Shown here one piece after another: positions 14,776-34,899 of a DNA stretch of 64,000 nt (positions are counted from its first letter, which is position 1; every line of letters begins with the position of its first letter). The translations under genes and the position numbers were made by a program. Below the pieces are notes generated by a model. It was not told the DNA's origin and ran no database searches. It saw only the letters and a list, made by a program, of their open reading frames with translations. Where the stretch lies: NCBI RefSeq assembly GCF_055900595.2, contig NZ_CM148325.1; one strand, given 5' to 3'.

Positions 14776-16005
14776 TCAGGGCCAACGTTTTATGATGATG
14801 GATGTATTAATGCCGCCAAAGGCAAAGTTGTTACTCTGCAAAAACTCACAATCAATCTTGCGCGCTTCATGCATGATGTAATCCAGCTCGCCACAGTTAG
14901 GGTCTGGTTTATTCAGGTTTAGCGTAGGCGCAAACCAGCCTTCTCGCATCATTTGCAGACTCATCCAGGCTTCGAGCGCGCCACAGGCACCAAGCGTATG
15001 ACCAAAATAGCTTTTCAGCGAGGAGAGCGGCACATTATCACCGTAAATGGCTGCTGTCGCCAGACTTTCTGCCATATCACCACGATCGGTCGCCGTGCCA
15101 TGCGCTGAAATATAGCCAATATCTTGTGCGCTTAACCCGGCGATTTTCAGCGATTGCTCCATACAATACTGCATGGTTTCTCGCTGTGGTTGGGTGATAT
15201 GCGCGGCGTCGCAGTTAGTGGCAAAGCCGACGATTTCTCCATAAATGGTCGCACCGCGCGCTTTGGCGTGCTCCAGTTCTTCGAGAATCAGCGTGCCTGC
15301 GCCTTCGCCAATCACCAGCCCGTCGCGGTTTTCATCGAACGGTGAAGGGGTGGTTTTCGGCGCGTCATTATGCTGGCTGGTGGCGAAAAGCGTATCAAAT
15401 ACCGCCGCTTCTGAAGGGCATAACTCTTCGGCGCCACCAGCAACCATCACCGTTTGATAACCGTGACGAATGGCTTCCCACGCGTAGCCGATCGCCTGGC
15501 TGCCGGAGGTACAGGCGCTGGAGGTTGGGATCACCCGCCCGCGCAGGCCAAAAAATAGCCCGGTATTAACGGCGGTGGTGTGCGGCATCATCTGCACATA
15601 GGTGGTGCCAGTGATGTTATTGGTGTGCTTTTCAGTCAGCATGGTGGCGAACTCGCTCACCGGACCGGTACTGCCGGTCGATGAACCGTACGCAATGCCC
15701 GTTTCGCCGCTGGTTAATATCGGATCGCCAATCAACCCTGCCTGCTCTAACGCCAGCTCGCTGGCTCGGGTCGACATTTGCGACACGCGGCCCATCGCAC
15801 GGATACGCTTACGGGTGTAGTGCTCCGGTAGCGTAAAATCATCAATCGGCGCGCCAAGCAGGGTATGCAGGCCATCGTAAACCTGCCACTCCGGCATTTT
15901 GCGCACTGCGTTCTCATACGCCAGCAAACGCGCGGAAACGTCCTGCCAGTTTTCACCAAAGGCAGTCACGCCGCCCATTCCTGTAATCACTACGCGACGT
16001 GTCAT
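14776..16005 (-). CDS. apeR: beta-ketoacyl-ACP synthase (APE cluster, ApeR-like)
   Basis: 409 aa; KS active-site Cys in SSACTSG, His motifs HGTATDRGD and GHTLGACG; ATGA overlap with the upstream reductase gene. Confidence 0.85.
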   Translation of the reverse strand: MTRRVVITGMGGVTAFGENWQDVSARLLAYENAVRKMPEWQVYDGLHTLLGAPIDDFTLPEHYTRKRIRAMGRVSQMSTRASELALEQAGLIGDPILTSGETGIAYGSSTGSTGPVSEFATMLTEKHTNNITGTTYVQMMPHTTAVNTGLFFGLRGRVIPTSSACTSGSQAIGYAWEAIRHGYQTVMVAGGAEELCPSEAAVFDTLFATSQHNDAPKTTPSPFDENRDGLVIGEGAGTLILEELEHAKARGATIYGEIVGFATNCDAAHITQPQRETMQYCMEQSLKIAGLSAQDIGYISAHGTATDRGDMAESLATAAIYGDNVPLSSLKSYFGHTLGACGALEAWMSLQMMREGWFAPTLNLNKPDPNCGELDYIMHEARKIDCEFLQSNNFAFGGINTSIIIKRWP

Positions 16006-16733
16006 AACATCCCTCCGTTGATGGAAATAACCTGGCGGGTGACGTAACCCGCAATATCAGACATTAAATAACTGGCAAGCCCGGCAACTTCTTCCGCCTG
16101 GCCCATGCGTTTCATGGGGATCATCGACATTGCCTCTTTCAGAGCGCTCTCTTCCATTTCGATCATCCCGGTATCAATAAGCCCCGGCGCGATGCAATTG
16201 ACGGTGATTTTGCGCTTCGCGAGTTCGATAGCCAGTGCTTTTGTTGCGCCGATAATTCCGGCTTTGGCAGCACTGTAGTTCACCTGGCCGCGATTGCCCA
16301 TTACGCCGGAAACCGAGGACAGCGTGATGATGCGTCCGCCCTGGCGTGCGCCGATCATCGGCATAATGCACGGCTGAATGACGTTGTAGAAACTGTCGAG
16401 GTTGGTGTGGATCACCGCATCCCAGTCGTCATCGCTTAAAGCCGGAAAAGCGGCATCGCGGGCGATCCCGGCGTTACTAACCACGCCGTACCAGGCACCG
16501 TGTTGCGCGATCTCGTGCTCCAGCACTTCCCGACACTGTTCGCGGTTTGCGACGTCGAAACTGAGCAAACGCCCGTTACCACCGTTGGCGACAATGGCAT
16601 TCAGCGTTTCCTGAGCGCCTGCGGCGTCACGGTGATAGTGAACGCCAATGTTAAAGCCGTCTGCCGCCAGTTGGCAGGCGATGGCGCGACCAATGCCTTT
16701 GCTGGCACCAGTAACCAGAACTGAACGACTCAT
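16002..16733 (-). CDS. apeQ: 3-oxoacyl-ACP reductase, SDR family (ApeQ-like)
   Basis: 243 aa; TGASKGIGRAIA dinucleotide-binding motif and YSAAK catalytic motif. Confidence 0.85.
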   Translation of the reverse strand: MSRSVLVTGASKGIGRAIACQLAADGFNIGVHYHRDAAGAQETLNAIVANGGNGRLLSFDVANREQCREVLEHEIAQHGAWYGVVSNAGIARDAAFPALSDDDWDAVIHTNLDSFYNVIQPCIMPMIGARQGGRIITLSSVSGVMGNRGQVNYSAAKAGIIGATKALAIELAKRKITVNCIAPGLIDTGMIEMEESALKEAMSMIPMKRMGQAEEVAGLASYLMSDIAGYVTRQVISINGGML

Positions 16734-17197
16734 CAGGACGCTCCTTGTTGAAACAGGGTGGTAAGTTCTTCCGCAGTCGGCTGGAAGGTGTTAATGCGGC
16801 CCGTTGCCTCGCCGTCGTTGATGCTGCACTCAAAACTGCCGAAGCGTTCATCTTGCATCAGCAGTTTGACGGTAATGGTCAGCGTCTGGCCTGCGGGCAG
16901 AATGCCAGCGGCGCAAAGCAATTCACGCGCGCCCAGTACCATCCCTAACTCAATACTGTTTTTGCCCTGCTGGTGGCGATGCCAGCCAGACCAGACGCCG
17001 ACGGTTTGCGCCATCAGTTCAAGGGCAAACCAGCCAGGGAGATTGCCGTCCGGGTCGAGAAACGGTGCCAGTACACCACTGGGCGAAACCGTCACGCGGC
17101 ACACGGCGCTGTCATCGCTGACGCTCACCACTTCTTCCAGCAGCAACATGGGCGCATCGTGGGGCAGATAAGCGCCGGGTGATAAATAGTGGCTCAC
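16733..17197 (-). CDS. apeP: hot-dog fold dehydratase subunit (ApeP-like)
   Basis: 154 aa; GTG start at 17197 overlapping the stop of the upstream KS gene; call rests on size and cluster position. Confidence 0.65.
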   Translation of the reverse strand: MSHYLSPGAYLPHDAPMLLLEEVVSVSDDSAVCRVTVSPSGVLAPFLDPDGNLPGWFALELMAQTVGVWSGWHRHQQGKNSIELGMVLGARELLCAAGILPAGQTLTITVKLLMQDERFGSFECSINDGEATGRINTFQPTAEELTTLFQQGAS

Positions 17198-18363
17198 GAA
17201 ACCCTCCCGAGCAGAATGCTGGCGTTATTGCCGCCAAAGGCGAAAGAATTGGACAGGATCACCGGACGTGCCAGCGGCTGTGGTTTTTCGATAATGCCGC
17301 ACGGTGGCAGCGTGGGATCGCGTGGCGACAGGCTGAAGTCCTGAGCGGGCAGCGGTAAATCACGCTCTAAGATCAACGTGCTAATTGCCGCCTCGGTAAT
17401 GCCCGCCGCGCCCAGCGTGTGTCCGGTCAAATGTTTGGTGGAGCTGCACGGTACGCGTTCGCCAAACAGGGCGTTAACCACCATTGATTCAATCTGGTCG
17501 TTGAGTTGTGTGGCGGTGCCGTGCAGGTTGATATAGCCCACCTCATCCGGCGTAAGCTGCGCATCGTTCAGCGCCTGGTTAATAGCGCGGATCGCCCCTT
17601 CGCCCTGCGGATGCGGGGCCGAAATATGATAAGCGTCGCTTGATTCACCAACGCCCAGTAACGCGATGGGCTGCGGTTCACGGGTCAGCAGCATTAGCCC
17701 CGCGCCTTCGCCAATGGTGATGCCCGCACGGTCACGACCGAACGGCTGACATAAGGTGGGCGACAGCGATTCGAGGCTGTGAAAACCGTTAATCGGCATC
17801 CGGCTCAGAGTGTCTGCGCCACCCACAATGGCGGCATCGACCAGCCCCGCTTCGATAAGCCTGCGCCCGCTGATCATCGCTCTGGCGCTGGAAGAGCAGG
17901 CGGTTGAAAGAGTATATGCCGGGCCGTCGAGCGCCAGCCAGTGGCTGAGAAAACGCGACGGATCGCCGAGTTCTTGTTGTGCATAGTGCCATGTGGTGCT
18001 TGGCTGCCCGTGGGTGCGCAGGTTAACGTGCGTGTCGCCTTCATGCAGGCCGGAGGTGCTGGTGCCAAGCACAATCGCGATGCGCTCGCGGCCATATTTT
18101 GCGATGGCGTCATCAACCTGCAGCTGGATCTGCGCCAGCGCCGCCAGCAGGATCTGATTGTTGCGCGAGCGGTGCGCAGCGAATTTTTCCGGGATAAGCG
18201 GAAGCTCGCCATCCACGCCAGCCAGGACCGCCTGCGGATGCCCCTGCAACCAGCCTGCGCGTGGGCGCATTCCGGGAGCAACACCGCGAGTCAGGTTGGC
18301 TGCGATCTCATCAAGATTATTTCCCAGGGCGTTGATCATGCCAACGGCGGAAATATAAATCAT
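17194..18363 (-). CDS. apeO: beta-ketoacyl-ACP synthase (ApeO-like)
   Basis: Active-site Cys in LSTACSSSA, His motifs LHGTATQ and GHTLGAAG. Start is either GTG 18372 (track) or ATG 18363. Confidence 0.8.
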   Translation of the reverse strand: MIYISAVGMINALGNNLDEIAANLTRGVAPGMRPRAGWLQGHPQAVLAGVDGELPLIPEKFAAHRSRNNQILLAALAQIQLQVDDAIAKYGRERIAIVLGTSTSGLHEGDTHVNLRTHGQPSTTWHYAQQELGDPSRFLSHWLALDGPAYTLSTACSSSARAMISGRRLIEAGLVDAAIVGGADTLSRMPINGFHSLESLSPTLCQPFGRDRAGITIGEGAGLMLLTREPQPIALLGVGESSDAYHISAPHPQGEGAIRAINQALNDAQLTPDEVGYINLHGTATQLNDQIESMVVNALFGERVPCSSTKHLTGHTLGAAGITEAAISTLILERDLPLPAQDFSLSPRDPTLPPCGIIEKPQPLARPVILSNSFAFGGNNASILLGRVS

Positions 18364-18364
18364 A

Positions 18365-18949
18365 TTAGTCACCTAAGTATTGAATGGTGATGTGGTATTT
18401 AAAGACATGCTGCTCAATGCTGATTGGCACGCGTTTTCCTTTGCGATTCAAATAGGTGATTTCCGTGACCAGTTTGCCGCTGGCGTTACGCAGTTCGCGT
18501 TTGTCACCGTTGTCACGAAGTGTCCATCCTGCGGGAAGTTGCGGTTGCCAGGCGCTAATCGGCCAGTGGCTGAGCATTACGTCAGCCAGCACCTGACTTG
18601 CTGGCGGCAACTGTGGGACGACGATGGATTGCTCGGCGCGTAGCCCTTGCGCATCGTAGGTCACCAGAAACAGACGAATGCCGACTGATGACAGTCCGGC
18701 AAGGGTGATTTTCTGGTCGTCGGCATTAAGCATCACCAACAGCGACTGGGTTTTGCCGTTGAAGCTGCCAGTCAACAGTTGTTGGGAATTGACGGCGGGT
18801 GAAATCCCCGGCGCAGGCAGCGTGATGCGTGTGCCAGGTTGCAGCCACGCCTGCGGGCGGCCTTCCTGTTCCGGTTGCGAGTGGCTACAGCCGGTGAGGA
18901 TAAGCGTAGCGGTCAGGGCGAGCGCCCGCCAGAAGGTGGGTTTGATCAT
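18365..18949 (-). CDS. apeN: DUF3261-like outer-membrane lipoprotein (ApeN-like)
   Basis: 194 aa; signal peptide with lipobox LTGC; ATGA overlap with the MMPL gene stop. Confidence 0.7.
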   Translation of the reverse strand: MIKPTFWRALALTATLILTGCSHSQPEQEGRPQAWLQPGTRITLPAPGISPAVNSQQLLTGSFNGKTQSLLVMLNADDQKITLAGLSSVGIRLFLVTYDAQGLRAEQSIVVPQLPPASQVLADVMLSHWPISAWQPQLPAGWTLRDNGDKRELRNASGKLVTEITYLNRKGKRVPISIEQHVFKYHITIQYLGD

Positions 18950-21261
18950 TTTTTTGTTCTCTTTTTATCGGGCATAGCCAGCGGCGAAAGCAGGAAGGCG
19001 GTGAAAATACCGCTCACCAGCACAATGCCAAAACTGCTGATGGCCTGAGTGGCGCTGAATACCAGCATTCCCAGCGTCAGCAAGGTGGTGAGCATTGCCA
19101 GCGTGATCGCCAGTAGGGAAGTTAACGGTGTACCGCGCGGATTACTGAAAAACAGCGTGTAGTTGATGCCGATGCCAAGCACCAGCACCAGCGCCAGCAG
19201 CGAAAAGAGATTCACCGCCTGCCCGCTCATCGCCAGCACTGCCAGACCGCAGCCCAGCGAAAGCACCGAAGGCACCAGGCTGATAAGCCCTTTGCGCCAG
19301 CCAAGGCGGGCCACTGCGCCGCAGGCAATCACTGCCAGCGCCACCAGCAACAAACCGGTTAAGACGTGGCGGTAAAGTGCGAACAATTCATCAAAAGTGT
19401 TTTTGCGATCAACCCAGGCAATGCCCTGGTAATAGCTGGCTGTTTCCTGCAACAACGCGCTACTTTTAACCCCTTCAACCGGCACCAGTACGCCGCTTGC
19501 GCCGTTTTCCAGCGTCAGCCACAGCAGACGCCAGCCTTCACTGGCGGGGCTTGCCAGCCATTCATCGACCTTCACTGGCATGGCGTTGAGATCTGGTTTC
19601 ACCGCCGTCAGCCCGGCATTTTGCAGCGCTTTTGTTACCGTCGGGGCAGACGTTTTCAGCAGATGTAAATCTTCCTCCTGCCGCACCAGGGAGTTCAGCG
19701 GAATAGTGCGGTAGTTGCTGATAAGACCGTCTTTTTTCGCTTTCTCCAGCGAGGCGGTAAATGTCTCCAGCCGCCGCAATGTTTGCTGTGGCGAATCGCC
19801 GTAAACCACAAACCATTTTTGATCGACGCTTTGTCCGGTCAGGGCGGTAATGGCTTTTTCCTGCGCCAGAATATGCTGCGGCAGCGCCTGTAACTGCGAG
19901 ATATCGTCATCGACGCGCAGCATTGACATCCCCGCCAGCGAAAACAGCGCCAGCGCGACGGGCAGACCCCGCGACAGTTTTTTATTGCGCCGCCACGCCG
20001 CCAGCCAGCGCAGCATCAGCGCCATCGCCGGAACCGGACGCACCGGCAGGCCACGGCACAGCCACGGATGCCAGAACAGAACGGTCAGACAGGAGGCGCT
20101 CAACCCGACGGCGGCAAAAATCGCCATCTGGCGAATGCCGGGGAAGGGGGCGAGCATCATAATCAGATACGCCGCCACGGTGGTGAGCAGCGCCAGTAGC
20201 AAGGCATTGCGCACTTTCGCCAGGCTTTGCCACGGCGAAACGTCATTGCCGTGCACCATCCGTTCAGTGAGGTAATAGAGCGTGTAGTCAGCGGAAATGC
20301 CGATAACGCTCATGCTCATCACCAGCGTCATCAGGTGTAATTCACCGAAAATCAACAAGGTGGCGACCGTTCCCGCCAGCGCGCCAATGCCGATGGAAAT
20401 CACGCAAAGCAGCAACGGGCGTAAAGAGCGGAACACCGCCACAATCAGTAATATCACCCCCAGCAGCGTTGCCACGCCCAGGGTTGAGATATCCTGCTTC
20501 GCCTGTTGACTGGCGTAATCGCTGTAAAATACCGTGCCGCGCGAGAGCAACTGCGCCTGCGGGTAACGCGTTTTCAGATCCTTTTCCAGCGTATTCAGGG
20601 TGGTGATGAGCTGGTGGGTTTGCTGCATATCAAACGACGATCCCGCCAGTTCTCCGTGTAGCAGATACCAGTAGTTGCCCTGGGGATCCTGCGTCACCAG
20701 CCAGCCGTCCATCAGTCGTAAACGCTGACCGTTTTTCGCCATCGCCAGCTGCGAGCCGCGCATTAACATCAGCGGATCGTTTTGCAGCTCCTTGCCGCTT
20801 ACCCCGGAGAACGCAGAATAAAGCTGGGAGAGGATCCACTGCGCCTGCGCTTCACCGCCGTTTTGTAGTCGGGCGCGAGTGTCGGGGTCAATCAGGCCGT
20901 TGCGATGCTGCCAGAAAAACGCTCCCCACGCCTGCTGGCTGGCGGCATCCATTGGCCCTTTAACATCGCCGAGCGCAGCGGATTTTTGCAGCAGCGTCAG
21001 CCATTCCTGAGCGACCAGGGGATTAGCCTCTTTACCGGGGCTGACCAGCCACACCAGTTGGCGGTCCAGACGCTGCATAAAGCCGTCATTCAGCGCCGGG
21101 GGAATATCGCCCATCGCCTGTTTGGGTAACATAGCCAGCACGCTACTGTTCAGTCGTGATTGCGGCAGCAGGATCAGCAACGCCGCTGCCATGACCAGGC
21201 AGATGATCCCCCATAACAGCGCCGGGCGTTTACTGGGCGGCAAAACGTTGGCGTTCGTCAT
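18946..21261 (-). CDS. apeM: MMPL/RND-superfamily predicted exporter (ApeM-like)
   Basis: 771 aa with two clusters of TM helices separated by soluble domains. Start 21261 overlaps apeL by 32 nt; an alternative ATG at 21192 is possible. Confidence 0.75.
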   Translation of the reverse strand: MTNANVLPPSKRPALLWGIICLVMAAALLILLPQSRLNSSVLAMLPKQAMGDIPPALNDGFMQRLDRQLVWLVSPGKEANPLVAQEWLTLLQKSAALGDVKGPMDAASQQAWGAFFWQHRNGLIDPDTRARLQNGGEAQAQWILSQLYSAFSGVSGKELQNDPLMLMRGSQLAMAKNGQRLRLMDGWLVTQDPQGNYWYLLHGELAGSSFDMQQTHQLITTLNTLEKDLKTRYPQAQLLSRGTVFYSDYASQQAKQDISTLGVATLLGVILLIVAVFRSLRPLLLCVISIGIGALAGTVATLLIFGELHLMTLVMSMSVIGISADYTLYYLTERMVHGNDVSPWQSLAKVRNALLLALLTTVAAYLIMMLAPFPGIRQMAIFAAVGLSASCLTVLFWHPWLCRGLPVRPVPAMALMLRWLAAWRRNKKLSRGLPVALALFSLAGMSMLRVDDDISQLQALPQHILAQEKAITALTGQSVDQKWFVVYGDSPQQTLRRLETFTASLEKAKKDGLISNYRTIPLNSLVRQEEDLHLLKTSAPTVTKALQNAGLTAVKPDLNAMPVKVDEWLASPASEGWRLLWLTLENGASGVLVPVEGVKSSALLQETASYYQGIAWVDRKNTFDELFALYRHVLTGLLLVALAVIACGAVARLGWRKGLISLVPSVLSLGCGLAVLAMSGQAVNLFSLLALVLVLGIGINYTLFFSNPRGTPLTSLLAITLAMLTTLLTLGMLVFSATQAISSFGIVLVSGIFTAFLLSPLAMPDKKRTKK

Positions 21262-21835
21262 CGGTCAGTTGCGCTGGCGTCAGTTGATGTTGGGTAAGAG
21301 CGATATCGGTGCGATCGCCCTGTTTATCATTAAGCTGAATGCTCTCCAGATAGGTTTGCCCGGCGAGATCGATGGTATTGAAAATTTTATCCAGCGGCGT
21401 GGTGGTCGGCGTCAGGCGCAGCGTCCAGCGGCCTTCGCCTTTGTCAGCAAATTCGACGCGGAAGTTTTGTTCCAGCACTTTGCGATCGGCCTGGAACAGC
21501 GCGCGCAGCAGGTGGTTAAACTGGAACATCTGCGGGTTATTTTCTGCCGTGATGATTTGTGGCGGCTGACCGTTGATCACCTGCACCATGCGTTTATCGT
21601 CCAGTAATAGCTGCATGGGGAACGGTGAGGTTTGATCCCACAACAGCCCCTGGTCGCGGGCGATCAACATCTGCCCCTGCGATCGCAGCGGTTGCGGCAG
21701 ATCTTTAATCGTCCGGGTTTGATCGAAATGGGCGCGGATCACCGGCTGTTCGGTAAAGCGTTGCTGAAGATCGTCCAGGGTCAGGGCGCTCACAAACGGG
21801 CTAATCAGCAGCGCCAGCAGCGGTAAAAATTTCAT
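21230..21835 (-). CDS. apeL: LolA-like outer-membrane lipoprotein carrier protein (ApeL-like)
   Basis: 201 aa; cleavable signal peptide (MKFLPLLALLISPFVSA); LolA-like size. Confidence 0.7.
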   Translation of the reverse strand: MKFLPLLALLISPFVSALTLDDLQQRFTEQPVIRAHFDQTRTIKDLPQPLRSQGQMLIARDQGLLWDQTSPFPMQLLLDDKRMVQVINGQPPQIITAENNPQMFQFNHLLRALFQADRKVLEQNFRVEFADKGEGRWTLRLTPTTTPLDKIFNTIDLAGQTYLESIQLNDKQGDRTDIALTQHQLTPAQLTDDERQRFAAQ

Positions 21836-22254
21836 GGTTTGACTCCCATGCGTTCAAACAGAATATCGGGGCTGACAAAGCACAGTTCGCGGCTTTGCTC
21901 GTCGACCGCGACCTGAATGGTGTATCCGGTGGTGGCGCGTTTGCCCGTTTCGGCATCGAAAATCTGATAGCCAATTCGCAGGCGGTTTTCGAACTCTTCG
22001 ATATGCGCACGCACGCGGATGCGTTGCTCAAAGGTGAGGGCGTGGCGATATTTCACCCGCGCATCGACCACTGGCCACAAATAACCCGACTCTTTCATCT
22101 GCCGATAGCCGTAATTGAACTGGTTGAGCAGCGCCTCGCGGGCCACTTCAAAGTAGCGAAAATAGTTACCGTGCCAGGCCACGCCCATCATATCGACGTC
22201 GTGAAATGGAATGATCAGCTCGACTTCAGCGGTAAATCGGGGATCGTTAAGCAC
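21832..22254 (-). CDS. apeK: 4HBT/YbgC-type hot-dog thioesterase (ApeK-like)
   Basis: 140 aa; HDVDMMGVAWHGNYFRYFE thioesterase motif; GTG start. Confidence 0.75.
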   Translation of the reverse strand: MLNDPRFTAEVELIIPFHDVDMMGVAWHGNYFRYFEVAREALLNQFNYGYRQMKESGYLWPVVDARVKYRHALTFEQRIRVRAHIEEFENRLRIGYQIFDAETGKRATTGYTIQVAVDEQSRELCFVSPDILFERMGVKP

Positions 22255-22257
22255 CCT

Positions 22258-23934
22258 TTACTCCTTGTCCTGGACTTCCGGCAGTTGCCAGAAATCGAAA
22301 AAATTAAACCAGTCGAGGGGCGACTGGAGCGCGTGATGTTCCAGACGCGCGGCGTAATGATCGATAGCGTTTTGCAGCGCCTGCTGGCGTTCGCCACGCG
22401 GCAACAGCAGCGGGTCGGCAAAGGTTTCGCAGTTAATATGCAGCTTGCCGTGCTGGCGCAGGGCGAAAATCAGATTCACCGGGCAGCGCAAAATAGACGC
22501 GAGAATAAACGGCCCCTGTGGGAAGGGCGCAGGCTGGCCCATAAACGAACTCCAGCAGACGCGCCAGTCGCCGCCGCGTTGCGGGTTGATGGCGATGCGG
22601 TCACCAACAATCGCCACCCATTCGCCGTTATCCAGCTTCTCTTTTAGCAGGATGGCGGTGTCCGGGCCGATATCCGTCACCGGCATCAGGTTAATGCCTG
22701 CCTGAGGAGCCATCTCCTGCATTATCTGTTTAAAGCGTTGGGCGTTTTCGCTAAACACCAGCGCGTTAATGGTTTTGTAGCCCTGAATTTTTGCCAGCGC
22801 CCGGCACACTTCCACATCGCCAAGATGCGAGGCCAGCAGCAATTTGCCGCGCGGATCGCTGACGTTAAGTGCCGCTTCTGCGCCTGGTGCAAACAGCACA
22901 TCACGCCCGAGTTGCAGCTCGCCGCGCCAACTGGCGATTTTGTCGAGCATGGCGTTGCCGAAACGTAGAAAGTGCTGATAGCTGTTGAGTTTTGCTGCCT
23001 GTGGTTGATGCTGGCGCACACGGGCGAGCCAGTCTTGCGACGCTTTGCGCGCCCGGCTGGCGGTGAGCCAGTAGACGCCCACCACCGGATAAAGCAGCGC
23101 GGTAAACGCCGTTCTTCCCAGCAGGCGCCAGACCAGCAGCATCAGGCGCATTCCCCATAATCCTTTCACTTCGCTCTGCCGCGCCCAGTGGCTGGAAGAG
23201 TGGCGCATCAGCAGCGAAGGAATACGCGGCAACATGCCGAAAAACAGGCGCGTGTGCATGAGCGAGATGCGGACGTTATCTTTCAGGGCATCAAAGTGCG
23301 AAAGCCCGTCCAGCGGATAGGTGACGCGGGTCGGCACGAAATAGCTGGTGTTTCCCTGCCAGTAGAGGCGCACCATCACTTCGGTGTCGAAATCCATCCG
23401 CTTGCCGATGGTGGCGTGTTTTGCCAGTTGCAGCGTTGGCGCAACCGGATAAACGCGAAAGCCGCACATGCTGTCTTTCAGTTGCAGGGAGAGCGTTTCG
23501 ACCCATACCCAGATGTGGGTGACCCAGCGCCCGTACAGCCGTGAGCGGGGGATGGAGTCATCGTAAATTGGCTGGCCGGAGATCAGTGCCGCAGGGTGTT
23601 GTTCAGCGAGTGCCAGCAGTTTGGGGATATCTTCAATCGCGTGCTGACCGTCGGCATCTACCTGTACCGCATGGCTGAACCCCGCGTCTGCCGCTGCCTG
23701 TAAGCCGCGCATTACCGCCGCGCCTTTGCCTGCGTTTTCTGCCAGGCGAATTAATGTCACGCCAGGCTGTTCGGCAACCAGATTATCCAGTTGCTGTTGC
23801 GTGGCGGCATCGCTGCCGTCATCCACCACAATACAGGGCAGATTAAATGGCTTAAGACGCGCCAGCACGCCCGGCATCATTGCGCCGTGGTTGTAGCAGG
23901 GGATCAACACGCAGGGAGAAAAGTTTACCGACAT
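22258..23934 (-). CDS. apeJ: family-2 glycosyltransferase fused to a C-terminal acyltransferase-like domain (ApeJ-like)
   Basis: 558 aa; N-terminal GT-A fold signature (CYNHG...VVDDGSDA), longer C-terminal domain. Confidence 0.7.
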   Translation of the reverse strand: MSVNFSPCVLIPCYNHGAMMPGVLARLKPFNLPCIVVDDGSDAATQQQLDNLVAEQPGVTLIRLAENAGKGAAVMRGLQAAADAGFSHAVQVDADGQHAIEDIPKLLALAEQHPAALISGQPIYDDSIPRSRLYGRWVTHIWVWVETLSLQLKDSMCGFRVYPVAPTLQLAKHATIGKRMDFDTEVMVRLYWQGNTSYFVPTRVTYPLDGLSHFDALKDNVRISLMHTRLFFGMLPRIPSLLMRHSSSHWARQSEVKGLWGMRLMLLVWRLLGRTAFTALLYPVVGVYWLTASRARKASQDWLARVRQHQPQAAKLNSYQHFLRFGNAMLDKIASWRGELQLGRDVLFAPGAEAALNVSDPRGKLLLASHLGDVEVCRALAKIQGYKTINALVFSENAQRFKQIMQEMAPQAGINLMPVTDIGPDTAILLKEKLDNGEWVAIVGDRIAINPQRGGDWRVCWSSFMGQPAPFPQGPFILASILRCPVNLIFALRQHGKLHINCETFADPLLLPRGERQQALQNAIDHYAARLEHHALQSPLDWFNFFDFWQLPEVQDKE

Positions 23935-24278
23935 AGGCGGATCTTCCCGCTACTGGCGGTGTGGCGGGCGTCACCGTCGTGACGCTGATAACTAAAGCTC
24001 AGAATCTGGCGTTCTTCCTGCCAGCTAAGCGTGAGTGTGACGCGGTTATCCGGCAGCAATGGAGCCTGGAATTTGATGTTCTGAATGGAGTGAAAACGCC
24101 AACCGGGCGCGAGCAGGGCAAGCGCGTAACTCATCGCCCAGTCGATTTGCGCCACGCCAGGGAGTAATGGTTGTACGGCAAAATGACCGCGAAACCAGAA
24201 CAGATCTGCCCTGAGATGCAAAACAATCTCAAGGTGATTCACTTGTGCCTGATGGCGCTCGATTTCATGGGGCTTCAT
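23925..24278 (-). CDS. apeI: FabZ-like 3-hydroxyacyl-ACP dehydratase (ApeI-like)
   Basis: Hot-dog dehydratase motif FRGHFAVQPLLPGV. ATG at 24278 preferred over the track GTG at 24308, which would overlap apeH by 44 nt. Confidence 0.75.
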   Translation of the reverse strand: MKPHEIERHQAQVNHLEIVLHLRADLFWFRGHFAVQPLLPGVAQIDWAMSYALALLAPGWRFHSIQNIKFQAPLLPDNRVTLTLSWQEERQILSFSYQRHDGDARHTASSGKIRLCR

Positions 24279-25626
24279 GAAATAACTCCTGTAATTGCGC
24301 ATAGACACGCTTGTTCATACTGTTTACTGGCATTTCATCAATAACGCGCCAGTAACGCGGAATAGCAACTGGCTCCAGCGTCGGGCGCAGTAATCGCCGC
24401 CAGGCCATTTCCTGGCTGTGCCCGCCGCCGTTTTGCCATTGCAGGCGAGCTTCGTCATCCAGCACCAGCAAAACGCCAATACTCTGACGTCCGCCGCGCG
24501 TAACGGGAACTGCCGCCGCCTCGCGAATACCGTCCAGCGCCAGCAGACGTTGTTCTACTTCCTGGAGTGAAATACGTTTTTCTTCAATCTTAACGATGCG
24601 CCCACGACGCCCCATCAGATGGAACTGACCGTCCTGGCTAAACTGCAAGAGATCATCGAGTAACAGGCCGTTATCTTCCGCTATCAGCGGTGAAAAGAGG
24701 CGAAATGCTTCACCTTCGGCCTGGAACTGCACACCTGGGAAGGGTAGCCAGCGGCGTTGCTCTTGTTCGCGGTAACGCCAGGCGATGACGCCGGTTTCCG
24801 TGCTGCCGTAGATTTCATCAGGCCAGACGCGCAGCCAGCTCGCGGTATATTGTACGTCCTGCCACGGCAGCTCACCGCCAGCAGAGAGAAGCACCTGAAC
24901 GGGCGGCGGAGAAAGCTGGGTATCCAGCCGTTTCAAAAATGCCGGGCTGCTGATGAAGATATAGCGATGCTGGTGACTCAATGCGGCAAACTGTTCGACA
25001 TACCAGAGCATGGCGGCGTGCAGCGGTAATCCCAGCGCCATTGGCAGGAAAACGCGAAAAGTCAGGCCGTACAAATGCTGCGGCAATACGGAACCGACGA
25101 CACGACATCCGGCAAGACGTGCGCCTAATCGTTCAGCCAGCAGTTCTGCTTCACGGTCCAGCAAATGAACAGGTTTAATTACCCGCTTTGGCTGCCCCGT
25201 AGAACCGGAGGTAAACAGCTCGATATAAGCGTCTGGCGCTATAGCGGCAAAGGTGAATGATTGTGTCGCGACTTGTGGGGAGCTTGCTACCAACAGCAAT
25301 GAACCTTGCCAGTTAAGTTCGCTGTCGCTAAGCACACCATCGAACAGTTCACGTTGCTCGTTAAGCTGGATGACGCGGTTATGCCCCGGAAGCACCGGTG
25401 TTTTTCCGGCGTGTAGCGTGGCGAGCAGGGCAACGATAAACAGATAGCAGTCCTCAAAGCACAGCGCCCAGCGTTCACCTGGTTGTTGCTGTAAACGGCA
25501 GATAAGTTGCGAGACATCGTGACGCAAATCGCCCAGCGTCCAGGTGCTTTCGTCCAGCCACGCAATGGGCGTGTCATCAGGGCGTGGCGCAGTCAGCCAG
25601 CGTGCAAGCGGTAAGGTCTGCTTCAT
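24265..25626 (-). CDS. apeH: AMP-dependent acyl/aryl ligase (adenylate-forming; ApeH-like)
   Basis: Adenylation P-loop FTSGSTGQPKRV. ATG at 25624..25626 forms an ATGA overlap with the apeG stop; the track start 25665 is an extension. Confidence 0.8.
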   Translation of the reverse strand: MKQTLPLARWLTAPRPDDTPIAWLDESTWTLGDLRHDVSQLICRLQQQPGERWALCFEDCYLFIVALLATLHAGKTPVLPGHNRVIQLNEQRELFDGVLSDSELNWQGSLLLVASSPQVATQSFTFAAIAPDAYIELFTSGSTGQPKRVIKPVHLLDREAELLAERLGARLAGCRVVGSVLPQHLYGLTFRVFLPMALGLPLHAAMLWYVEQFAALSHQHRYIFISSPAFLKRLDTQLSPPPVQVLLSAGGELPWQDVQYTASWLRVWPDEIYGSTETGVIAWRYREQEQRRWLPFPGVQFQAEGEAFRLFSPLIAEDNGLLLDDLLQFSQDGQFHLMGRRGRIVKIEEKRISLQEVEQRLLALDGIREAAAVPVTRGGRQSIGVLLVLDDEARLQWQNGGGHSQEMAWRRLLRPTLEPVAIPRYWRVIDEMPVNSMNKRVYAQLQELFHEAP

Positions 25627-26204
25627 GAGCGATCTCTTTTCATCACCTGACGGCGCACCAGCCATTCACCAGCCATTAACGTCCCCATCAACAAATAAGC
25701 AATCATGCCGTTCCAGGCAGTCCATAACGACATATCGCCATGCAGCGCGGTAAAGAGGGCAATTCCGCCGTTGATGATGAAAAAGCCGCACCAGATTTGC
25801 GTGACGTGGCGGGTATAGCGCACGCCCTTTTCCGGGAGGTCTGGCTCCTGCAAACGCGCCAGCCGCTCAACAATTGGCATTGCCGACCACAGCGAACCGC
25901 CAAAAACCGCCAGCATTACCGCGTTAACCACTACCGGGTAAAACAGCAGTAGCTGGTGCGTTTTCAACAGAAAGCTGGCGACACACAAGGCGATACCCAC
26001 GACAGCGACGATTTGTGTGACGGCTTGTAGCGGCTCGGCCTGGCAACGAGTCTGGCGCAGGCGCAATAAAAGCAGCAGCGCCATCAGCGGCAACAGCCAG
26101 TGCAGGCCGTTATGTGCCAAACCAAGCCAAATCACAAACGGCCAGGCGAGCAGTAATAATCCGGTCAGCAGTTTAATAATCGGTAGCGAGCGAATGCCCG
26201 ACAT
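25623..26204 (-). CDS. apeG: polytopic inner-membrane protein of unknown function (ApeG-like)
   Basis: 193 aa, about five hydrophobic helices; ATG 26202..26204. Confidence 0.65.
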   Translation of the reverse strand: MSGIRSLPIIKLLTGLLLLAWPFVIWLGLAHNGLHWLLPLMALLLLLRLRQTRCQAEPLQAVTQIVAVVGIALCVASFLLKTHQLLLFYPVVVNAVMLAVFGGSLWSAMPIVERLARLQEPDLPEKGVRYTRHVTQIWCGFFIINGGIALFTALHGDMSLWTAWNGMIAYLLMGTLMAGEWLVRRQVMKRDRS

Positions 26205-26208
26205 CAGA

Positions 26209-26460
26209 TCAGGCTTCTTGTAGCAGGCGTTCTACGGCCTCTACGACATCCTGGACTGTACGCACTGCTTTAAACTCTTCCGGCTTGATTTTCTTACCGG
26301 TTTTCTTTTGCAGATGCACAATCATGTCAACGGCGTCGATGCTGTCCAGTTCCAGATCTTCGTACAGGCGCGCTTCAGGTTTGATGTCCTGCGGATCGAT
26401 TTCAAACAGCTTAACCAGCAGAGCTGAGACTTCCTGATAGACGGTTTGTTGTTCTGTCAT
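26209..26460 (-). CDS. apeF: acyl carrier protein (ApeF-like)
   Basis: Pantetheine attachment motif LELDSIDAVDM. ATG at 26460 (MTEQQ...) or the track GTG at 26475. Confidence 0.8.
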   Translation of the reverse strand: MTEQQTVYQEVSALLVKLFEIDPQDIKPEARLYEDLELDSIDAVDMIVHLQKKTGKKIKPEEFKAVRTVQDVVEAVERLLQEA

Positions 26461-26471
26461 GATGGCTTTCC

Positions 26472-26729
26472 TCACGCACGTTGTGCAGCAATAAAAGAGG
26501 CCAGAGTGGCGACAGAGAAAAAGTGCTGACGCATCTCTTCACTTTCCGCAGAAAGTACAACGCCATATTCATTTTTTACTGCCAGCCCCAGTTCCAGGGC
26601 ATCGATGGAATCCAGCCCTAAACCGTCGCCGAACAGCGGCGCATCGGTCTCGATATCATCAGGAGTCAACTCGTCCAGATTGAGGGTGCTGATGATGAGG
26701 TTTTTAATTTCCAGATAAAGCGCTTGCAT
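26472..26729 (-). CDS. apeE: acyl carrier protein (ApeE-like)
   Basis: 85 aa; LGLDSIDALEL motif; ATG 26727..26729. Confidence 0.8.
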   Translation of the reverse strand: MQALYLEIKNLIISTLNLDELTPDDIETDAPLFGDGLGLDSIDALELGLAVKNEYGVVLSAESEEMRQHFFSVATLASFIAAQRA

Positions 26730-27525
26730 TATTTATTCCTGAGAGAGGTAAACAACCTTGTTGTAATTGAAGCAAAAGATGCCGGTTTAACTGCCTTGCT
26801 GCCAGCGCCGGTTCTTGTGAAGTTGCAACGTAAAATTTATTGATTTCAACCCGATCATGGACTTCAACCGTAAAAAACGGCCTGGCAGGTGGAACGTCAT
26901 ACCATTTACTTTGTTTATCCAGCAGATGCTCGCTACAGCCGATCGTCACGATGCGTAAATCGCTGGCACAGCGCACGGCAATATTCGCCGCCCCGCGCTG
27001 CAGCGTCATTTTTTCACCGGGCTTCGTTCGCGTGCCTTCGGGGAAAATCAAGATAGTGTCGCCCTGTGCCAGTCGCTGTTGGCAGCGGGGTAACAGGGTT
27101 TCAGCTTCGCTGTTGATTAAATAATCTGCCGCCCGCACAACGCCGCCAAGAAAAGGATTTTTTAACAGCGCGCTTTTCACCAGGCAGTCAGTTTCTGGCA
27201 TGACTGACGCCAGCAGTACGTAATCGATAAGCGTGGGATGATTAGCTACGACGAGGCAACCGCGTTCCTGACGTAAAATTTCAGCGCCATCAATACGATA
27301 ATCCAGCACGCCAAGCCCTTTCGCGACAGTTAAAAACAGGCGAAAACTGGCGGCAATGCTGCGACGCGCCAAACGACGGCGGCGGGAAGTATCCCACACC
27401 AAAACTAACAATATGTTAAACCACACGACAGAAAGCAGCAGGCCGCCGAGACCAAACAGGGCAAAACACAACCCGGTCATAACCAGTCGCCATGTCCATT
27501 CCAGGCGTGACATCAGCTTACTCAT
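26704..27525 (-). CDS. apeD: PlsC-like lysophospholipid acyltransferase (ApeD-like)
   Basis: 273 aa; N-terminal TM anchor; HX4D acyltransferase motif NHPTLID; ATGA overlap with the apeC stop. Confidence 0.75.
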   Translation of the reverse strand: MSKLMSRLEWTWRLVMTGLCFALFGLGGLLLSVVWFNILLVLVWDTSRRRRLARRSIAASFRLFLTVAKGLGVLDYRIDGAEILRQERGCLVVANHPTLIDYVLLASVMPETDCLVKSALLKNPFLGGVVRAADYLINSEAETLLPRCQQRLAQGDTILIFPEGTRTKPGEKMTLQRGAANIAVRCASDLRIVTIGCSEHLLDKQSKWYDVPPARPFFTVEVHDRVEINKFYVATSQEPALAARQLNRHLLLQLQQGCLPLSGINNASALSGN

Positions 27526-28244
27526 CTACGGCTCCAGCGCCACTGTACGCGCTCACCAGGAAGTGAAAAAGCATCTGAATTTTGTAAATAGTGCTGTAAA
27601 AACAACATGCTTTGCGGCAGTGTTGTTTCATTGCCCGCAATGGCTGGCTGTGTTTCACATTGCCACTCATCGCCAGCTTCAATCACCAGCGCAACAGCAT
27701 ATGGCCAGGTCGGCATTTCTGCTGGGAGCTGCGGATGATAGAACTCAGGTAGAAAGCCATCAAAATCGACCATCAACACGCGCTGGTATCCCGCTTGTAA
27801 CAGGCTAAGCACTTCACACAAACCTTGCTGGAAAGTGTCGCGACCAGCCGAAAGCGATGAGGAAACGATCGGTTGTTTGGCCGCAATGGTCAGGTTACCC
27901 ACGGAAGAGTTGTGTACGGAGAGCGCGAAGTCCGTCGGAGAGAGCGCCTGTTCGGTTGCCAGTGCATGAACAATGCGGTAATTGCGCTCCAGCTCGCCAT
28001 GACGACTGGTATACAAAACGGCGTCTGGCTGATGGTGGCGTAGCATTGCCAGACCGCACTCCACGGCCAGTTTGCTGCCAGAACTGAGACGGCGGGCGGT
28101 CATCATTGGCAGTTCACTTAATTTTGCCAACGGTGCGGCAGGGTCAACCGCCCACGGCTGGCGCGACCATGCTTGCCATTGCTGGGCTTCGCTAAGTCCA
28201 GGCGCCAGTGCCTTCCAGTCGGTAATATTTAATGTAAATTTCAT
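27522..28244 (-). CDS. apeC: truncated KS-like protein lacking the active-site Cys motif; chain-length-factor-like partner (ApeC-like)
   Basis: About 240 aa with no TACSS-type motif. ATG at 28244 (MKFTLNI...) preferred over the track TTG at 28268. Confidence 0.6.
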   Translation of the reverse strand: MKFTLNITDWKALAPGLSEAQQWQAWSRQPWAVDPAAPLAKLSELPMMTARRLSSGSKLAVECGLAMLRHHQPDAVLYTSRHGELERNYRIVHALATEQALSPTDFALSVHNSSVGNLTIAAKQPIVSSSLSAGRDTFQQGLCEVLSLLQAGYQRVLMVDFDGFLPEFYHPQLPAEMPTWPYAVALVIEAGDEWQCETQPAIAGNETTLPQSMLFLQHYLQNSDAFSLPGERVQWRWSRR

Positions 28245-28284
28245 CAACGCGCGCCCGCGGTAAACCAAAATTATTAAGTGACGA

Positions 28285-29343
28285 TTATTTCTTTTGGCAT
28301 ATCAATAATGTATGCCCAACGCCTAAATTATCGTGGCGCTCTGCTACCTGAAATCCTGCTTTATTCAGATAGTCGTAAAATTTCTCTGCGCTATAGAAAC
28401 GGCTGTTACCGTTTGCCATGCAGGTAAAATAAAGTGAGGACGCGTTCAGGCTAAATGATGCTGCTTCAAACCGCTGCGCATCCCAGAACAACTCCATGAT
28501 GCAAACTTTTGCGCCAGGCTTCATTACGCTGGCGATTTTGCTGAGTATGCTAATTATTTGTTCGGGTGAAAAACAGTCTAAAAATTGGCTCATCCACCAG
28601 ATATCAGCCTCGCCCGGTAATGGGGCATCGCTTAGCATATCCACCGCATGGAAATCTATGCGATCAGAAAAACCTGCATTCGCGATATTTTCTTTCGCTA
28701 GTACGATTTGTTGTGGCAGATCTAATAACGTCACGGCGATGTTTTCATTGTATTTGCAGCAACGCAAAGCCCACTTACCCGTATTGCCGCCTACATCGTA
28801 CAATGTTGTGGGGTTGTTGGCGAATACATAAGGCAGTGCGGCGTTAAATGCGCCATCTGAATAGTAATGATCAAACGCAAACCAGCTTTCACGAGCGGCA
28901 TCTGGTAATTGTGAAAGTGCGGGATATATCGTCGACCAGTCGCCAAATACTTTTAACCCGGACGGTTTTCCTTCATTGAGTGAATCGGCGAGGAAGAAGA
29001 GCCCCTGATAGCAGACATCCTGGGTGAAATCCATATTCACGCGAGTCATAGTGTCATGCAGGAGGTAATGACCGATTTTCGCCAGGTAATACATTCCCTC
29101 TTTACAGGTAATAATTCGCCCGCTTAAGCCCATATCTAACAGAACGCTGGCCGCATATTCGTTGATATGGCTATGTTCGGTGATATCAGCCAGCGTTGCG
29201 CCATGTTTGCCTTGCCGATCCAGATATGAAAGTACACCCGCATTACGTAGGCAGAGAGCTGTTTGAAAAAGCATGGGGGCAAAGGCAATGCGTTGAGCTT
29301 CGGTAATCGCATCCAGTGCGCTAAGAGAATCCTGTTCGTACAT
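28285..29343 (-). CDS. apeB: SAM-dependent methyltransferase, probably O-methyltransferase (ApeB-like)
   Basis: SAM-binding motif LYDVGGNTG; ATG at 29343 (MYEQ...) or the track GTG at 29352. Confidence 0.75.
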   Translation of the reverse strand: MYEQDSLSALDAITEAQRIAFAPMLFQTALCLRNAGVLSYLDRQGKHGATLADITEHSHINEYAASVLLDMGLSGRIITCKEGMYYLAKIGHYLLHDTMTRVNMDFTQDVCYQGLFFLADSLNEGKPSGLKVFGDWSTIYPALSQLPDAARESWFAFDHYYSDGAFNAALPYVFANNPTTLYDVGGNTGKWALRCCKYNENIAVTLLDLPQQIVLAKENIANAGFSDRIDFHAVDMLSDAPLPGEADIWWMSQFLDCFSPEQIISILSKIASVMKPGAKVCIMELFWDAQRFEAASFSLNASSLYFTCMANGNSRFYSAEKFYDYLNKAGFQVAERHDNLGVGHTLLICQKK

Positions 29344-29411
29344 GTTGGGCACAACCTGTTAAGAGGGAATTAAATTATTATCGGACCGAAGCGGCCCGAC
29401 TTTAGGGGAAA

Positions 29412-29801
29412 TTACAAATCTGCGCCAGCCGACAAATTCAGTTGAATATCTTTGTCGAGATTGCGGACCCAGCGATTATAGTTTTTATGAATTTGTCCGC
29501 CTGATGCTTGCAGGTTCTGACTATTTTCATAATTGATATCGTAGCTGGATGCCGTGTAGTTAATGCGAATTTCGGCTGAATGATCGCGTGACTGTTGACG
29601 TGCTTTAATTACGCCTTGTCCGGCTTCGGACATAATCCATTTGCGTTCAACGCCAGCTTTCAGAATCGCTTTTTTCACTTGTTCCTGGGTATGACCAGCG
29701 CTGACGGTTGAGTGAACCTGATCAATTGGCGCAGTACGCGCGCAACCCGCTAAAGCACCCACAACAGCAATAGCCGCAAACCATTTCATGTAATGTCTCA
29801 T
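29412..29801 (-). CDS. small lipoprotein of unknown function at the island edge
   Basis: 129 aa; signal peptide and lipobox (AVVGALAGC); start ATG at 29801 or 29789; candidate hairpin terminator just downstream. Confidence 0.55.
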   Translation of the reverse strand: MRHYMKWFAAIAVVGALAGCARTAPIDQVHSTVSAGHTQEQVKKAILKAGVERKWIMSEAGQGVIKARQQSRDHSAEIRINYTASSYDINYENSQNLQASGGQIHKNYNRWVRNLDKDIQLNLSAGADL

Positions 29802-34558: not shown

Positions 34559-34867
34559 ATGGATTATTTAATTCCAGTTTGTCTGGCATTGCTGGGATTG
34601 CTCGCGATCTTCACCCCCAATTGGCTGATCCCTGTTTTTATCGTCGTGGGGGGATGGCTGGGGGTACTTGCCTGGGGTTGGCTCTGGCTAATGATTTTTT
34701 TACCTTTACTTAACGGTGTCGGGCTTGCTTATGCCCTGTGGTTGATGTTCAAAAGGCCATCCATAGCATCCCGCCTGGTTGCTGCATGCTGTGTTATCTC
34801 CGTCATTCTGATGTTAGCGCTTTATTATGCTTTCCTGACTATGCCGCCGTTCCCGGCCCAGCACTAA
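34559..34867 (+). CDS. hypothetical small Trp-rich membrane protein (102 aa)
   Basis: ATG start with GGAA 8 nt upstream; three hydrophobic segments; convergent with zntA. No homology evidence available. Confidence 0.35.
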   Translation: MDYLIPVCLALLGLLAIFTPNWLIPVFIVVGGWLGVLAWGWLWLMIFLPLLNGVGLAYALWLMFKRPSIASRLVAACCVISVILMLALYYAFLTMPPFPAQH

Positions 34868-34899
34868 GCCTGATAGCCAGAGGCTATCAGGCAACACTT

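Follow-up and report, generated by a model that had tools for sequence, protein, structure and literature searches.

A predicted half-size chain-length factor and two distinct carrier proteins in an aryl polyene gene cluster of Escherichia coli

Do a half-size, ketosynthase-like protein without an active-site cysteine and two non-identical carrier proteins, all encoded at positions 26209..28244 (minus strand) of a 64,000-nucleotide stretch, belong to a ketosynthase/chain-length-factor (KS/CLF) system, and does each carrier have a task of its own? The stretch, called the window here, is the whole of the DNA analyzed (contig NZ_CM148325.1 of RefSeq assembly GCF_055900595.2). Biosynthetic gene clusters for aryl polyenes (APE) rank among the most widespread in bacteria. 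Those of E. coli protect the cell against oxidative stress and promote the formation of biofilms (PMC8253772). We consider it highly probable that the interval contributes to an APE pathway in which ApeO and ApeC form the KS/CLF, ApeE carries the starter and the growing chain, and ApeF is an auxiliary carrier.

At the locus level, the interval resolves into four genes (apeC, apeD, apeE, and apeF) and, by its gene content, is part of the E. coli APE type II polyketide synthase cluster. The whole cluster spans 14776..29789 on the minus strand and has 18 genes from apeR to apeA, with every open reading frame intact. Both the open reading frame lists and the RefSeq annotation of a 100%-identical locus give the order apeR-Q-P-O-N-M-L-K-J-I-H-G-F-E-D-C-B-A. 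Synteny was complete, gene for gene, with the copy in uropathogenic E. coli (UPEC) and with Table 1 of PMC8253772. Thus, an ApeO-type active KS, ApeR, ApeQ, ApeI/P, ApeH, ApeE/F, and ApeM are all encoded alongside apeC. The cluster adjoins acpT on the E. coli chromosome: this 4′-phosphopantetheinyl transferase gene (14187..14774, minus strand; NF007676 AcpT, 394 bits) lies directly downstream of apeR. AcpT is likely the activator of ApeE and ApeF by phosphopantetheinylation, and in vitro activation of the O157:H7 homologues of both carriers by AcpT is cited in PMC8253772. Four plus-strand open reading frames within or overlapping the interval (26840..27124, 27356..27808, 27857..28087, and 28072..28263) were rejected as genes, being antisense to conserved genes and without RefSeq annotation.

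The half-size protein is the product of apeC (27522..28244, minus strand), which has an ATG start and encodes 240 aa, with start and stop identical to those in RefSeq for a 100%-identical genome; the mechanical open reading frame begins at TTG 28268 and would give 248 aa. RefSeq (PGAP) names the product 'beta-ketoacyl synthase chain length factor'. Pfam PF13723 covers it over model positions 1-223 of 223 (E 7e-67), and an NCBIfam search of ApeC returned no family despite the PGAP name. Among known structures, ApeC matched 6QSP_B, the Xenorhabdus doucetiae ApeC, over its full length (58% identity, E 7.9e-91; E 5.4e-128 in a profile search) and 7F28_A (E 1.4e-14). An AlphaFold model derived from an alignment of 9 sequences was of mediocre quality (pLDDT 61, pTM 0.68) and served solely to rank folds and to place the strand/helix boundary. 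Foldseek with this model ranked 6QSP_B first (E 5.5e-28, TM 0.76), followed by 7F28 (AbApeC) and 6KXF_B (ishigamide CLF). ApeC corresponds to a single KS N-terminal-like thiolase half-domain, in which only the first thiolase half is kept. Together with the literature (PMC8358021, PMC8253772), these matches support the sequence-only reading in its main proposal, a KS/CLF pair, and ApeC as the probable half-size CLF subunit of a type II heterodimer.

ApeC lacks the residues that an active KS would need. As the sequence-only reading had noted, the product is about 240 aa long and has no TACSS-type cysteine: its three Cys (63, 143, and 196) are all outside an AC[ST][ST] context. HGTxT and GHTxGA His motifs were sought in ApeC and none was found, and its nucleophile region reads Ser132-Ala133-Gly134, without Cys. 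A cryptic catalytic Cys, which the same reading had named as counting against a CLF, was looked for in ApeC and in 118 diverse representatives of its family. No conserved Cys column appeared among these 118, the maximum being 19 sequences with Cys in any one column. Cys63, Cys143, and Cys196 were rejected as candidates, since they are poorly conserved (≤19/118) and lie outside the nucleophile elbow. At positions 132-134 the family consensus is A/S-A-G, and no more than 3 of the 118 representatives have a Cys there; Gln was sought there and was not among the five commonest residues, in a register uncertain by about one residue.

How ApeC aligns with a true KS is less sharply defined. BLASTP of ApeC against ApeO gave E 0.17, which is not significant, so homology to KSs is not demonstrable by pairwise BLASTP. 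Profile-profile alignments of the ApeC family with ApeO and ApeR were weak as well (E 0.14 with 9 sequences, E 0.082 with 118); colinearity extended over as many as 212 columns, with differing nucleophile registers. In these weak alignments Cys159 of ApeO stands opposite Leu131 or Ser132 of ApeC, and an ungapped count from a conserved Pro places it at Ala133. Since the ApeC/ApeO comparison is not significant, the equivalent of the catalytic Cys can be given only as Ser132 ± 1 residue.

Could ApeC instead be a decayed KS remnant, or a protein that partners ApeR or acts alone, leaving ApeO with no dedicated CLF? Its length of about 60% of a KS, the loss of catalytic residues, and the insignificant pairwise similarity to KSs would all fit a remnant. 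However, ApeC is one member of a large and conserved family (2111 representatives at E≤1e-3 and 50% clustering), and half size is the norm there, because the median length among the best 150 of these representatives is 243 aa. The family also has invariant motifs (RR, SRHGE, and SP..F..SVHN), 824 of 5426 complete E. coli genomes carry an intact apeC, and a homologue is bound to an ApeO homologue in two crystal structures (6QSP and 7F28). As for a pairing with ApeR, ApeR homologues crystallize as homodimers (PMC8358021). We regard these alternatives as very unlikely.

Both full-length KSs of the cluster retain the active-site Cys, as had been read from the sequence, and both His motifs as well. 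ApeO (17194..18372, minus strand; RefSeq start 18363; NF006618, 556 bits) is the active KS, with STAC159SSS, H284GTAT, and GH318TLGA providing Cys159, His284, and His318. ApeR (14776..16005, minus strand; NF006587, 780 bits) is a FabB/FabF-like KS of the homodimeric type, with SSAC165TSG, H302GTAT, and GH336TLGA (Cys165, His302, and His336); its matches 4EWG (E 4.9e-165) and 7F27 (AbApeR, E 7.3e-159) are both homodimeric. ApeO matches 7F28_B (E 2.8e-83) and, because of its homology to 6QSP_A, the ApeO chain of the X. doucetiae complex (E 5.7e-174), we infer that ApeO rather than ApeR would be the KS partner of ApeC. Going by the homologous complexes 6QSP and 7F28 and by the literature, ApeC most likely forms a heterodimer with ApeO and controls chain length. 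Published work describes ApeO-ApeC as a heterodimer of a KS and a CLF of half size (PMC8358021, PMC8253772). In that work the CLF has one thiolase fold, and the heterodimer alone yields the fully elongated polyene, with throughput raised by ApeR (PMC8358021).

This is in line with two characterized systems. The X. doucetiae ApeO-ApeC complex (Grammbitter et al. 2019, as cited in PMC8253772 and PMC8358021) has an ApeC of the same size (240 aa here, 239 aa there), and the X. doucetiae ape cluster shares the 18-gene architecture and the same two carriers, ApeE and ApeF; the window differs in its host, E. coli, in the position of the cluster beside chromosomal acpT, and in that its allele is known from sequence. 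Acinetobacter baumannii has orthologous ApeO-ApeC (7F28), ApeR (7F27), ApeE (9LS6), and ApeF (9L1V), and its CLF is likewise half-size with one thiolase fold. About 20 residues at the N-terminus of E. coli and Xenorhabdus ApeC are missing from AbApeC (PMC8358021), and beside the nucleophile position AbApeC reads SLSC, whereas E. coli ApeC reads SLSAG.

The sequence-only reading had also called this the arrangement expected for type II systems, and here it needs correction. Classical CLFs are full-length proteins of about 400 aa with two thiolase folds, and their genes neighbor that of KS-alpha, to which they are translationally coupled; ApeC has 240 aa and one fold, and apeC lies about 9.1 kb from apeO, with 11 genes in between. 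In actinorhodin-type CLFs, a Gln replaces the active-site Cys, whereas ApeC has Ser/Ala at that position, within a register of about one residue. What the actinorhodin (1TQY) and ishigamide (6KXF) pairs share with the proposed ApeO-ApeC is a catalytically dead thiolase-fold partner that shapes the acyl pocket of the active KS. Wide separation of the CLF gene from the KS gene was likewise noted by Johnston 2021 (PMC8253772). That the two proteins form a classical KS-alpha/KS-beta pair of the actinorhodin type, belonging to a type II PKS for aromatic, non-reduced products, seems barely conceivable to us. The fold search does match the actinorhodin CLF 1TQY_B, at rank 36 (E 1.4e-4), but besides the differences in CLF size, gene distance, and residue, the cluster encodes a ketoreductase and dehydratases, which correspond to a highly reducing polyene pathway, and cyclases and aromatases are absent among its annotated products.

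The two carriers differ around the attachment Ser just as the sequence-only reading had quoted. The product of apeE (26472..26729, minus strand; 85 aa) has Ser41 in GLDSI, within the motif GDGLGLDSIDALEL, and scores 90 bits with NF006617 (cutoff 70). That of apeF (26209..26460, minus strand; 83 aa) has Ser40 in ELDSI, within EDLELDSIDAVDM, and scores 146 bits with NF003757 (cutoff 65). For apeF, the start is most likely ATG 26460 and not GTG 26475: a ribosome-binding site, GAGGAAAG, lies upstream of the ATG, which is also the RefSeq start.

The best PDB match of ApeE was 9LS6, the A. baumannii ApeE (E 9e-25), and that of ApeF was 9L1V, the A. baumannii ApeF (E 5.7e-19). A Gly-rich motif ahead of helix 2, a Gly in helix 2, and a lid insertion have been defined as ApeE features (PMC12624758), and the window's ApeE keeps them as GDGLGLDS, the helix-2 Gly, and a SAES lid loop between helices 2 and 3: its FGDGLGLDS41IDALELGLA and LSAESEE align to FGEGLGLDSIDALELGLA and LNAESDE of AbApeE. 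The ApeE insertions are gaps in ApeF when the two carriers are aligned. ApeF conserves the helix-3 Phe, which in ApeF-type carriers shapes a shallow cavity, and its KPEEFKAVRTV aligns to KPEDFKNVRTV of AbApeF. By these comparisons, ApeE and ApeF are orthologous to the characterized A. baumannii ApeE (starter carrier) and ApeF (malonyl carrier), respectively. In A. baumannii, ApeE is the preferred carrier of the 4-hydroxybenzoate starter, and ApeF has been proposed as a malonyl shuttle (PMC12624758).

Mutants allow a further reading, in which ApeE and ApeF are functionally redundant and a tandem of them does no more than increase flux, like the tandem ACPs of PUFA synthases. In E. coli, deletion of apeF reduces the pigment and leaves part of it, some APE clusters, such as that for xanthomonadin, have one ACP, and both carriers can be loaded with 4-hydroxybenzoate in vitro (PMC8253772). 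Against this, deletion of apeE abolishes the pigment fully (PMC8253772), so ApeF does not replace ApeE, and ApeH binds ApeE selectively. Besides, ApeE and ApeF are only 30% identical, they fall into separate NCBIfam families (PRK09184 and PRK05350), and each is nearer to its own A. baumannii namesake than to the other. Mere redundancy is therefore quite improbable in our view, and the two should not be taken for duplicates of each other. From the homologues and the literature, we infer a division of labor between ApeE and ApeF. Distinct roles for starter and elongation, as the sequence-only reading had put forward, agree with PMC12624758 and with the E. coli deletions (PMC8253772), although the role of ApeF is disputed: it would be an auxiliary carrier that acts as malonyl shuttle, second-chain carrier, or both.

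The second of these roles involves apeD (26704..27525, minus strand), which lies inside the interval and was absent from the sequence-only reading. It encodes 273 aa of the lysophospholipid/glycerol-3-phosphate acyltransferase family; RefSeq names it 'lysophospholipid acyltransferase family protein', and its TIGR00530 AGP_acyltrn domain (E 3.4e-15) is under the curated cutoff. The apeC stop and the apeD start overlap in ATGA, and the end of apeD overlaps apeE by 26 nt.

It is possible, though clearly the less favored option, that ApeF is the carrier on which the second conjugated fatty acid of the APE-lipid is built before ApeD transfers it to lysophosphatidylglycerol, so that two carriers would stand for two products instead of for starter and extender. 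In X. doucetiae, the structures of APE-lipids and the study of deletion mutants led to such a proposal (bioRxiv 10.1101/2020.12.19.423268). In the window, apeD, apeE, and apeF lie end to end with overlaps, and the E. coli apeF deletion mutant still makes yellow intermediates and not the mature lipid (PMC8253772). On the other side, NMR and ITC on A. baumannii ApeF gave a shallow cavity that fits malonyl and binding to FabD (PMC12624758). The two roles can coexist, and the sequence does not discriminate between them. An extended form seems improbable to us: ApeF as the scaffold for a second polyunsaturated chain installed by ApeD, apeC-D-E-F as two parallel carrier-bound lines served by one KS/CLF, and, as further speculation, a divergent allele that leads to a different chain length. 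The second-chain idea itself was already in the 2020 preprint (bioRxiv 10.1101/2020.12.19.423268), and the one observation behind the different chain length is sequence divergence.

Returning to ApeO-ApeC with ApeE as main and ApeF as auxiliary carrier, the pathway could proceed as follows. AcpT most likely phosphopantetheinylates both ApeE and ApeF, and the adenylating enzyme ApeH would load 4-hydroxybenzoate onto holo-ApeE. ApeC, without catalytic residues, would bind ApeO in a pseudo-symmetric KS/CLF heterodimer, with a substrate pocket along the interface that ApeC closes, which would set the polyene length. ApeO-ApeC, aided by the homodimeric KS ApeR, would extend the chain with malonyl units, and every unit would become a double bond through the ketoreductase ApeQ and the dehydratases ApeI/ApeP, with ApeE carrying the chain throughout. 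ApeF, the less essential carrier, most likely supplies the malonyl extender units, which it would take over from FabD; instead or in addition, it may carry the second conjugated fatty acid, which ApeD would move to a lysophospholipid. In a later step, ApeD and ApeJ would link the product to a lipid of the membrane.

Both the KS/CLF heterodimer and the split between starter and extender carriers are already published (Grammbitter 2019, Johnston 2021, Lee 2021 and 2025), so these findings add no new biology. The value of the window would lie in correct annotation: what looks like a truncated KS is probably a functional chain-length factor and not a pseudogene.

Finally, the window carries a divergent version of a known cluster. 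The E. coli CFT073 cluster APE_Ec (c1186-c1204; Cimermancic 2014; Johnston 2021, PMC8253772) has the same 18 genes, one for one. In the UPEC-type copy of strain clone D i2, the proteins are 94% (ApeC), 94% (ApeE), and 96% (ApeF) identical to those of the window; that copy occupies another chromosomal site, an island with IS and hemagglutinin remnants, whereas the window's copy sits beside acpT. The O157:H7 copy is also beside acpT, and its apeC is 90% identical in DNA. Overall, a divergence of 6-10% at the DNA level separates the window's alleles from those of UPEC and O157, and their lineage (at least 99% identity) is present in only 8 of the 5426 complete genomes.

The ketosynthase (KS)/chain-length factor (CLF) system lies in a stretch of E. 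coli chromosome whose 26209..28268 interval has 100% identity with the DNA of eight complete E. coli genomes in RefSeq; the genes around it are colinear with those of strain Z0117EC0005. From apeR to apeA (14776..29789), we found an intact block of 18 genes, whose content agrees gene by gene with Table 1 of the paper on the aryl polyene (APE) cluster of E. coli (PMC8253772). On one side of the block lie acpT (directly downstream of apeR) and the nik operon; on the other lie yhhT, yhhS, dcrB, yhhQ, tusA, and zntA. It includes, on the minus strand, apeC (27522..28244, 240 aa), apeD (26704..27525, 273 aa, lysophospholipid acyltransferase family), apeE (26472..26729, 85 aa), and apeF (26209..26460, 83 aa). 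The last one probably starts at ATG 26460, with the ribosome-binding site GAGGAAAG upstream. The sequence-only reading of this interval had left out apeD.

ApeC matches the Pfam PF13723 domain in full ('beta-ketoacyl synthase, N-terminal domain', E 7e-67), and its RefSeq product name is 'beta-ketoacyl synthase chain length factor'. Among solved structures, it matched over its whole length 6QSP chain B (E 7.9e-91, 58% identity), from the entry entitled 'Ketosynthase (ApeO) in Complex with its Chain Length Factor (ApeC) from Xenorhabdus doucetiae', and also chain A of 7F28 (E 1.4e-14), the A. baumannii ApeO-ApeC complex (PMC8358021). The AlphaFold model of ApeC was of modest quality (pLDDT 61, pTM 0.68) and gave 6QSP_B as the first Foldseek match (E 5.5e-28, TM 0.76), followed by the chains of A. 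baumannii ApeC (AbApeC) and the ishigamide CLF 6KXF_B; further down were many thiolase-fold condensing enzymes, the actinorhodin CLF 1TQY_B among them. Searching 1.84 billion cluster representatives, we retrieved 2111 relatives at E<=1e-3, and the best 150 of them had a median length of 243 aa. Thus, the half size is the norm of the ApeC family.

The missing active-site Cys of the short protein was confirmed, while both full-length KSs keep theirs: ApeO has Cys159 in STACSSS and ApeR has Cys165 in SSACTSG, each with the His motifs HGTAT and GHTLGA. Scanning the 240 aa of ApeC, we found Cys63, Cys143, and Cys196, but neither the active-site Cys motif nor HGTAT or GHTLGA. In an alignment of 118 near-full-length family representatives (29-53% identity to the query), no Cys column was conserved, with Cys in at most 19 sequences at any column. 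Strongly conserved were Arg51-Arg52, Ser80-Arg-His-Gly-Glu84, Ser102-Pro, Phe106, Ser109-Val-His-Asn112, and Glu144.

A cryptic catalytic Cys, one of the findings that would have refuted the first reading, was not found. In the model, residues 126-131 form a strand, 132-136 a turn, and 137-150 a helix, a predicted layout with the geometry of the thiolase-fold 'nucleophile elbow'. Opposite ApeO Cys159, the wide-profile alignment placed Ser132 and the narrow-profile alignment Leu131 (E 0.08-0.14, statistically non-significant alone and with an uncertain exact register), and counting without gaps from the conserved Pro led to Ala133. None of these registers gives a Cys at the nucleophile position; across the family, residues 132-134 have the consensus Ala/Ser-Ala-Gly, and no more than 3 of the 118 sequences carry Cys there. 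Besides, the second thiolase half, which bears both catalytic His, is wholly missing. When AbApeC (7F28_A) was aligned to residues 126-140, it presented SLSC for the E. coli SLSAG, which puts a Cys immediately beside the predicted nucleophile position in A. baumannii; two or three of the 118 representatives likewise bear a Cys within 132-134.

Regarding the partner, the KS at 17194..18372 matched 6QSP chain A (E 5.7e-174) and 7F28 chain B (E 2.8e-83), which identifies it as ApeO, the KS crystallised together with ApeC. ApeR is the KS at 14776..16005, which matched 4EWG (E 4.9e-165) and 7F27 (AbApeR, E 7.3e-159); both structures are FabB-like homodimers (PMC8358021). From the orthology to two crystal complexes, we infer that ApeC pairs with ApeO.

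The pair belongs to the ApeO-ApeC family. We rejected a classical KS-alpha/KS-beta pair of the actinorhodin type, since three features that define such a pair fail: ApeC has 240 aa rather than about 400, apeC and apeO are separated by about 9.1 kb and 11 genes whereas the classical genes are adjacent and translationally coupled, and Ser/Ala occupies the Cys position instead of Gln. Hence the first reading, which took this to be the expected KS plus CLF arrangement, holds for function but not for gene layout. Overall, the original observation was real and its interpretation essentially correct, but all of its elements are already in the literature and in the RefSeq annotation.

The two differing carrier motifs were both present as first quoted, the attachment residue being Ser41 in ApeE and Ser40 in ApeF. 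The carriers share 30% identity and fall above cutoff in different NCBIfam models, one in PRK09184 'phosphopantetheine-binding protein' and the other in PRK05350 'acyl carrier protein'. Their best solved relatives were 9LS6 for ApeE (E 9e-25) and 9L1V for ApeF (E 5.7e-19), which are A. baumannii ApeE and ApeF (PMC12624758). E. coli ApeE retains the Gly-rich FGDGLGLDS motif, the helix-2 Gly (LELGLA), and the lid loop (SAES; NAES in A. baumannii), which the A. baumannii work links to the handling of starter units, and in ApeF the Phe in helix 3 that forms the shallow malonyl cavity is conserved. According to the same work, ApeH prefers ApeE when it loads 4-hydroxybenzoate, and malonyl is carried by ApeF, which binds FabD (PMC12624758). 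Deletion of apeE leaves E. coli non-pigmented, and with apeF deleted part of the pigment remains; the same paper cites AcpT as activating the O157:H7 homologues of both carriers (PMC8253772). By homology and published work, ApeE would handle the starter and ApeF most likely malonyl. In a preprint, ApeF is instead proposed as the carrier of a second conjugated fatty acid, to be moved by ApeD to a lysophosphatidylglycerol.

In the proposed pathway, ApeH would adenylate 4-hydroxybenzoate and load it on holo-ApeE, and ApeO-ApeC would condense malonyl units onto the chain, with ApeR raising throughput. After each unit, ApeQ would reduce and ApeI/ApeP dehydrate, giving a conjugated polyene on ApeE whose length may be limited by pocket depth at the ApeO-ApeC interface (PMC8358021; PMC9006962). 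ApeB would methylate the ring, ApeD and ApeJ would join the product to lipid, and ApeL, ApeM, and ApeN would export it. Our analysis itself established the identities and orthology of the parts, the lack of catalytic residues in ApeC, and an intact cluster, whereas the complex, its control of chain length, and the roles of the carriers are deduced from homologues and published work.

Among 5426 complete E. coli genomes, 824 carried apeC, some of them at two places (the highest number per genome). Identity to the allele described here was 99% or more in 8 genomes, about 93.6% in UPEC-type copies, and 90% in O157:H7 copies. This allele is rare (8 of 825 matching records at >=99%, with 814 in the 90-95% band), and its rarity suggests that this copy of the cluster represents a lineage of its own. 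In E. coli, the 18-gene APE cluster is present at two different chromosomal sites. Here it adjoins acpT, presumably like the O157:H7 copy, reported beside the same gene. UPEC strain clone D i2 carries the 18 genes (L002:3255..18276, its cluster copy) at a different site, in an island that also contains IS21/ISL3 remnants and hemagglutinin pseudogenes; protein identities between both copies were 94% for ApeC, 94% for ApeE, and 96% for ApeF.

Elsewhere in the window, positions 1..4000 presented 34-41% GC versus about 55% in the rest, and hold a pair of DUF4049 paralogues: yhiJ and, next to it, a gene that the matching genome's annotation lists as a pseudogene carrying an internal stop. The same annotation places a 248-aa tetratricopeptide-repeat protein between ugpB and livF (about 51010..51756, plus strand, mapped from L004:12889..13635 of that genome), which is not known to have a K-12 counterpart at this position. 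It also includes a small hypothetical protein between tusA and zntA (34559..34876, plus strand), corresponding to a hydrophobic 102-aa ORF (34559..34867). Finally, the sole Rfam match at gathering threshold within the window was the RyhB small RNA (RF00057, 83 bits, E 3.6e-14) at 60043..60107 on the plus strand, between yhhX and yhhY.
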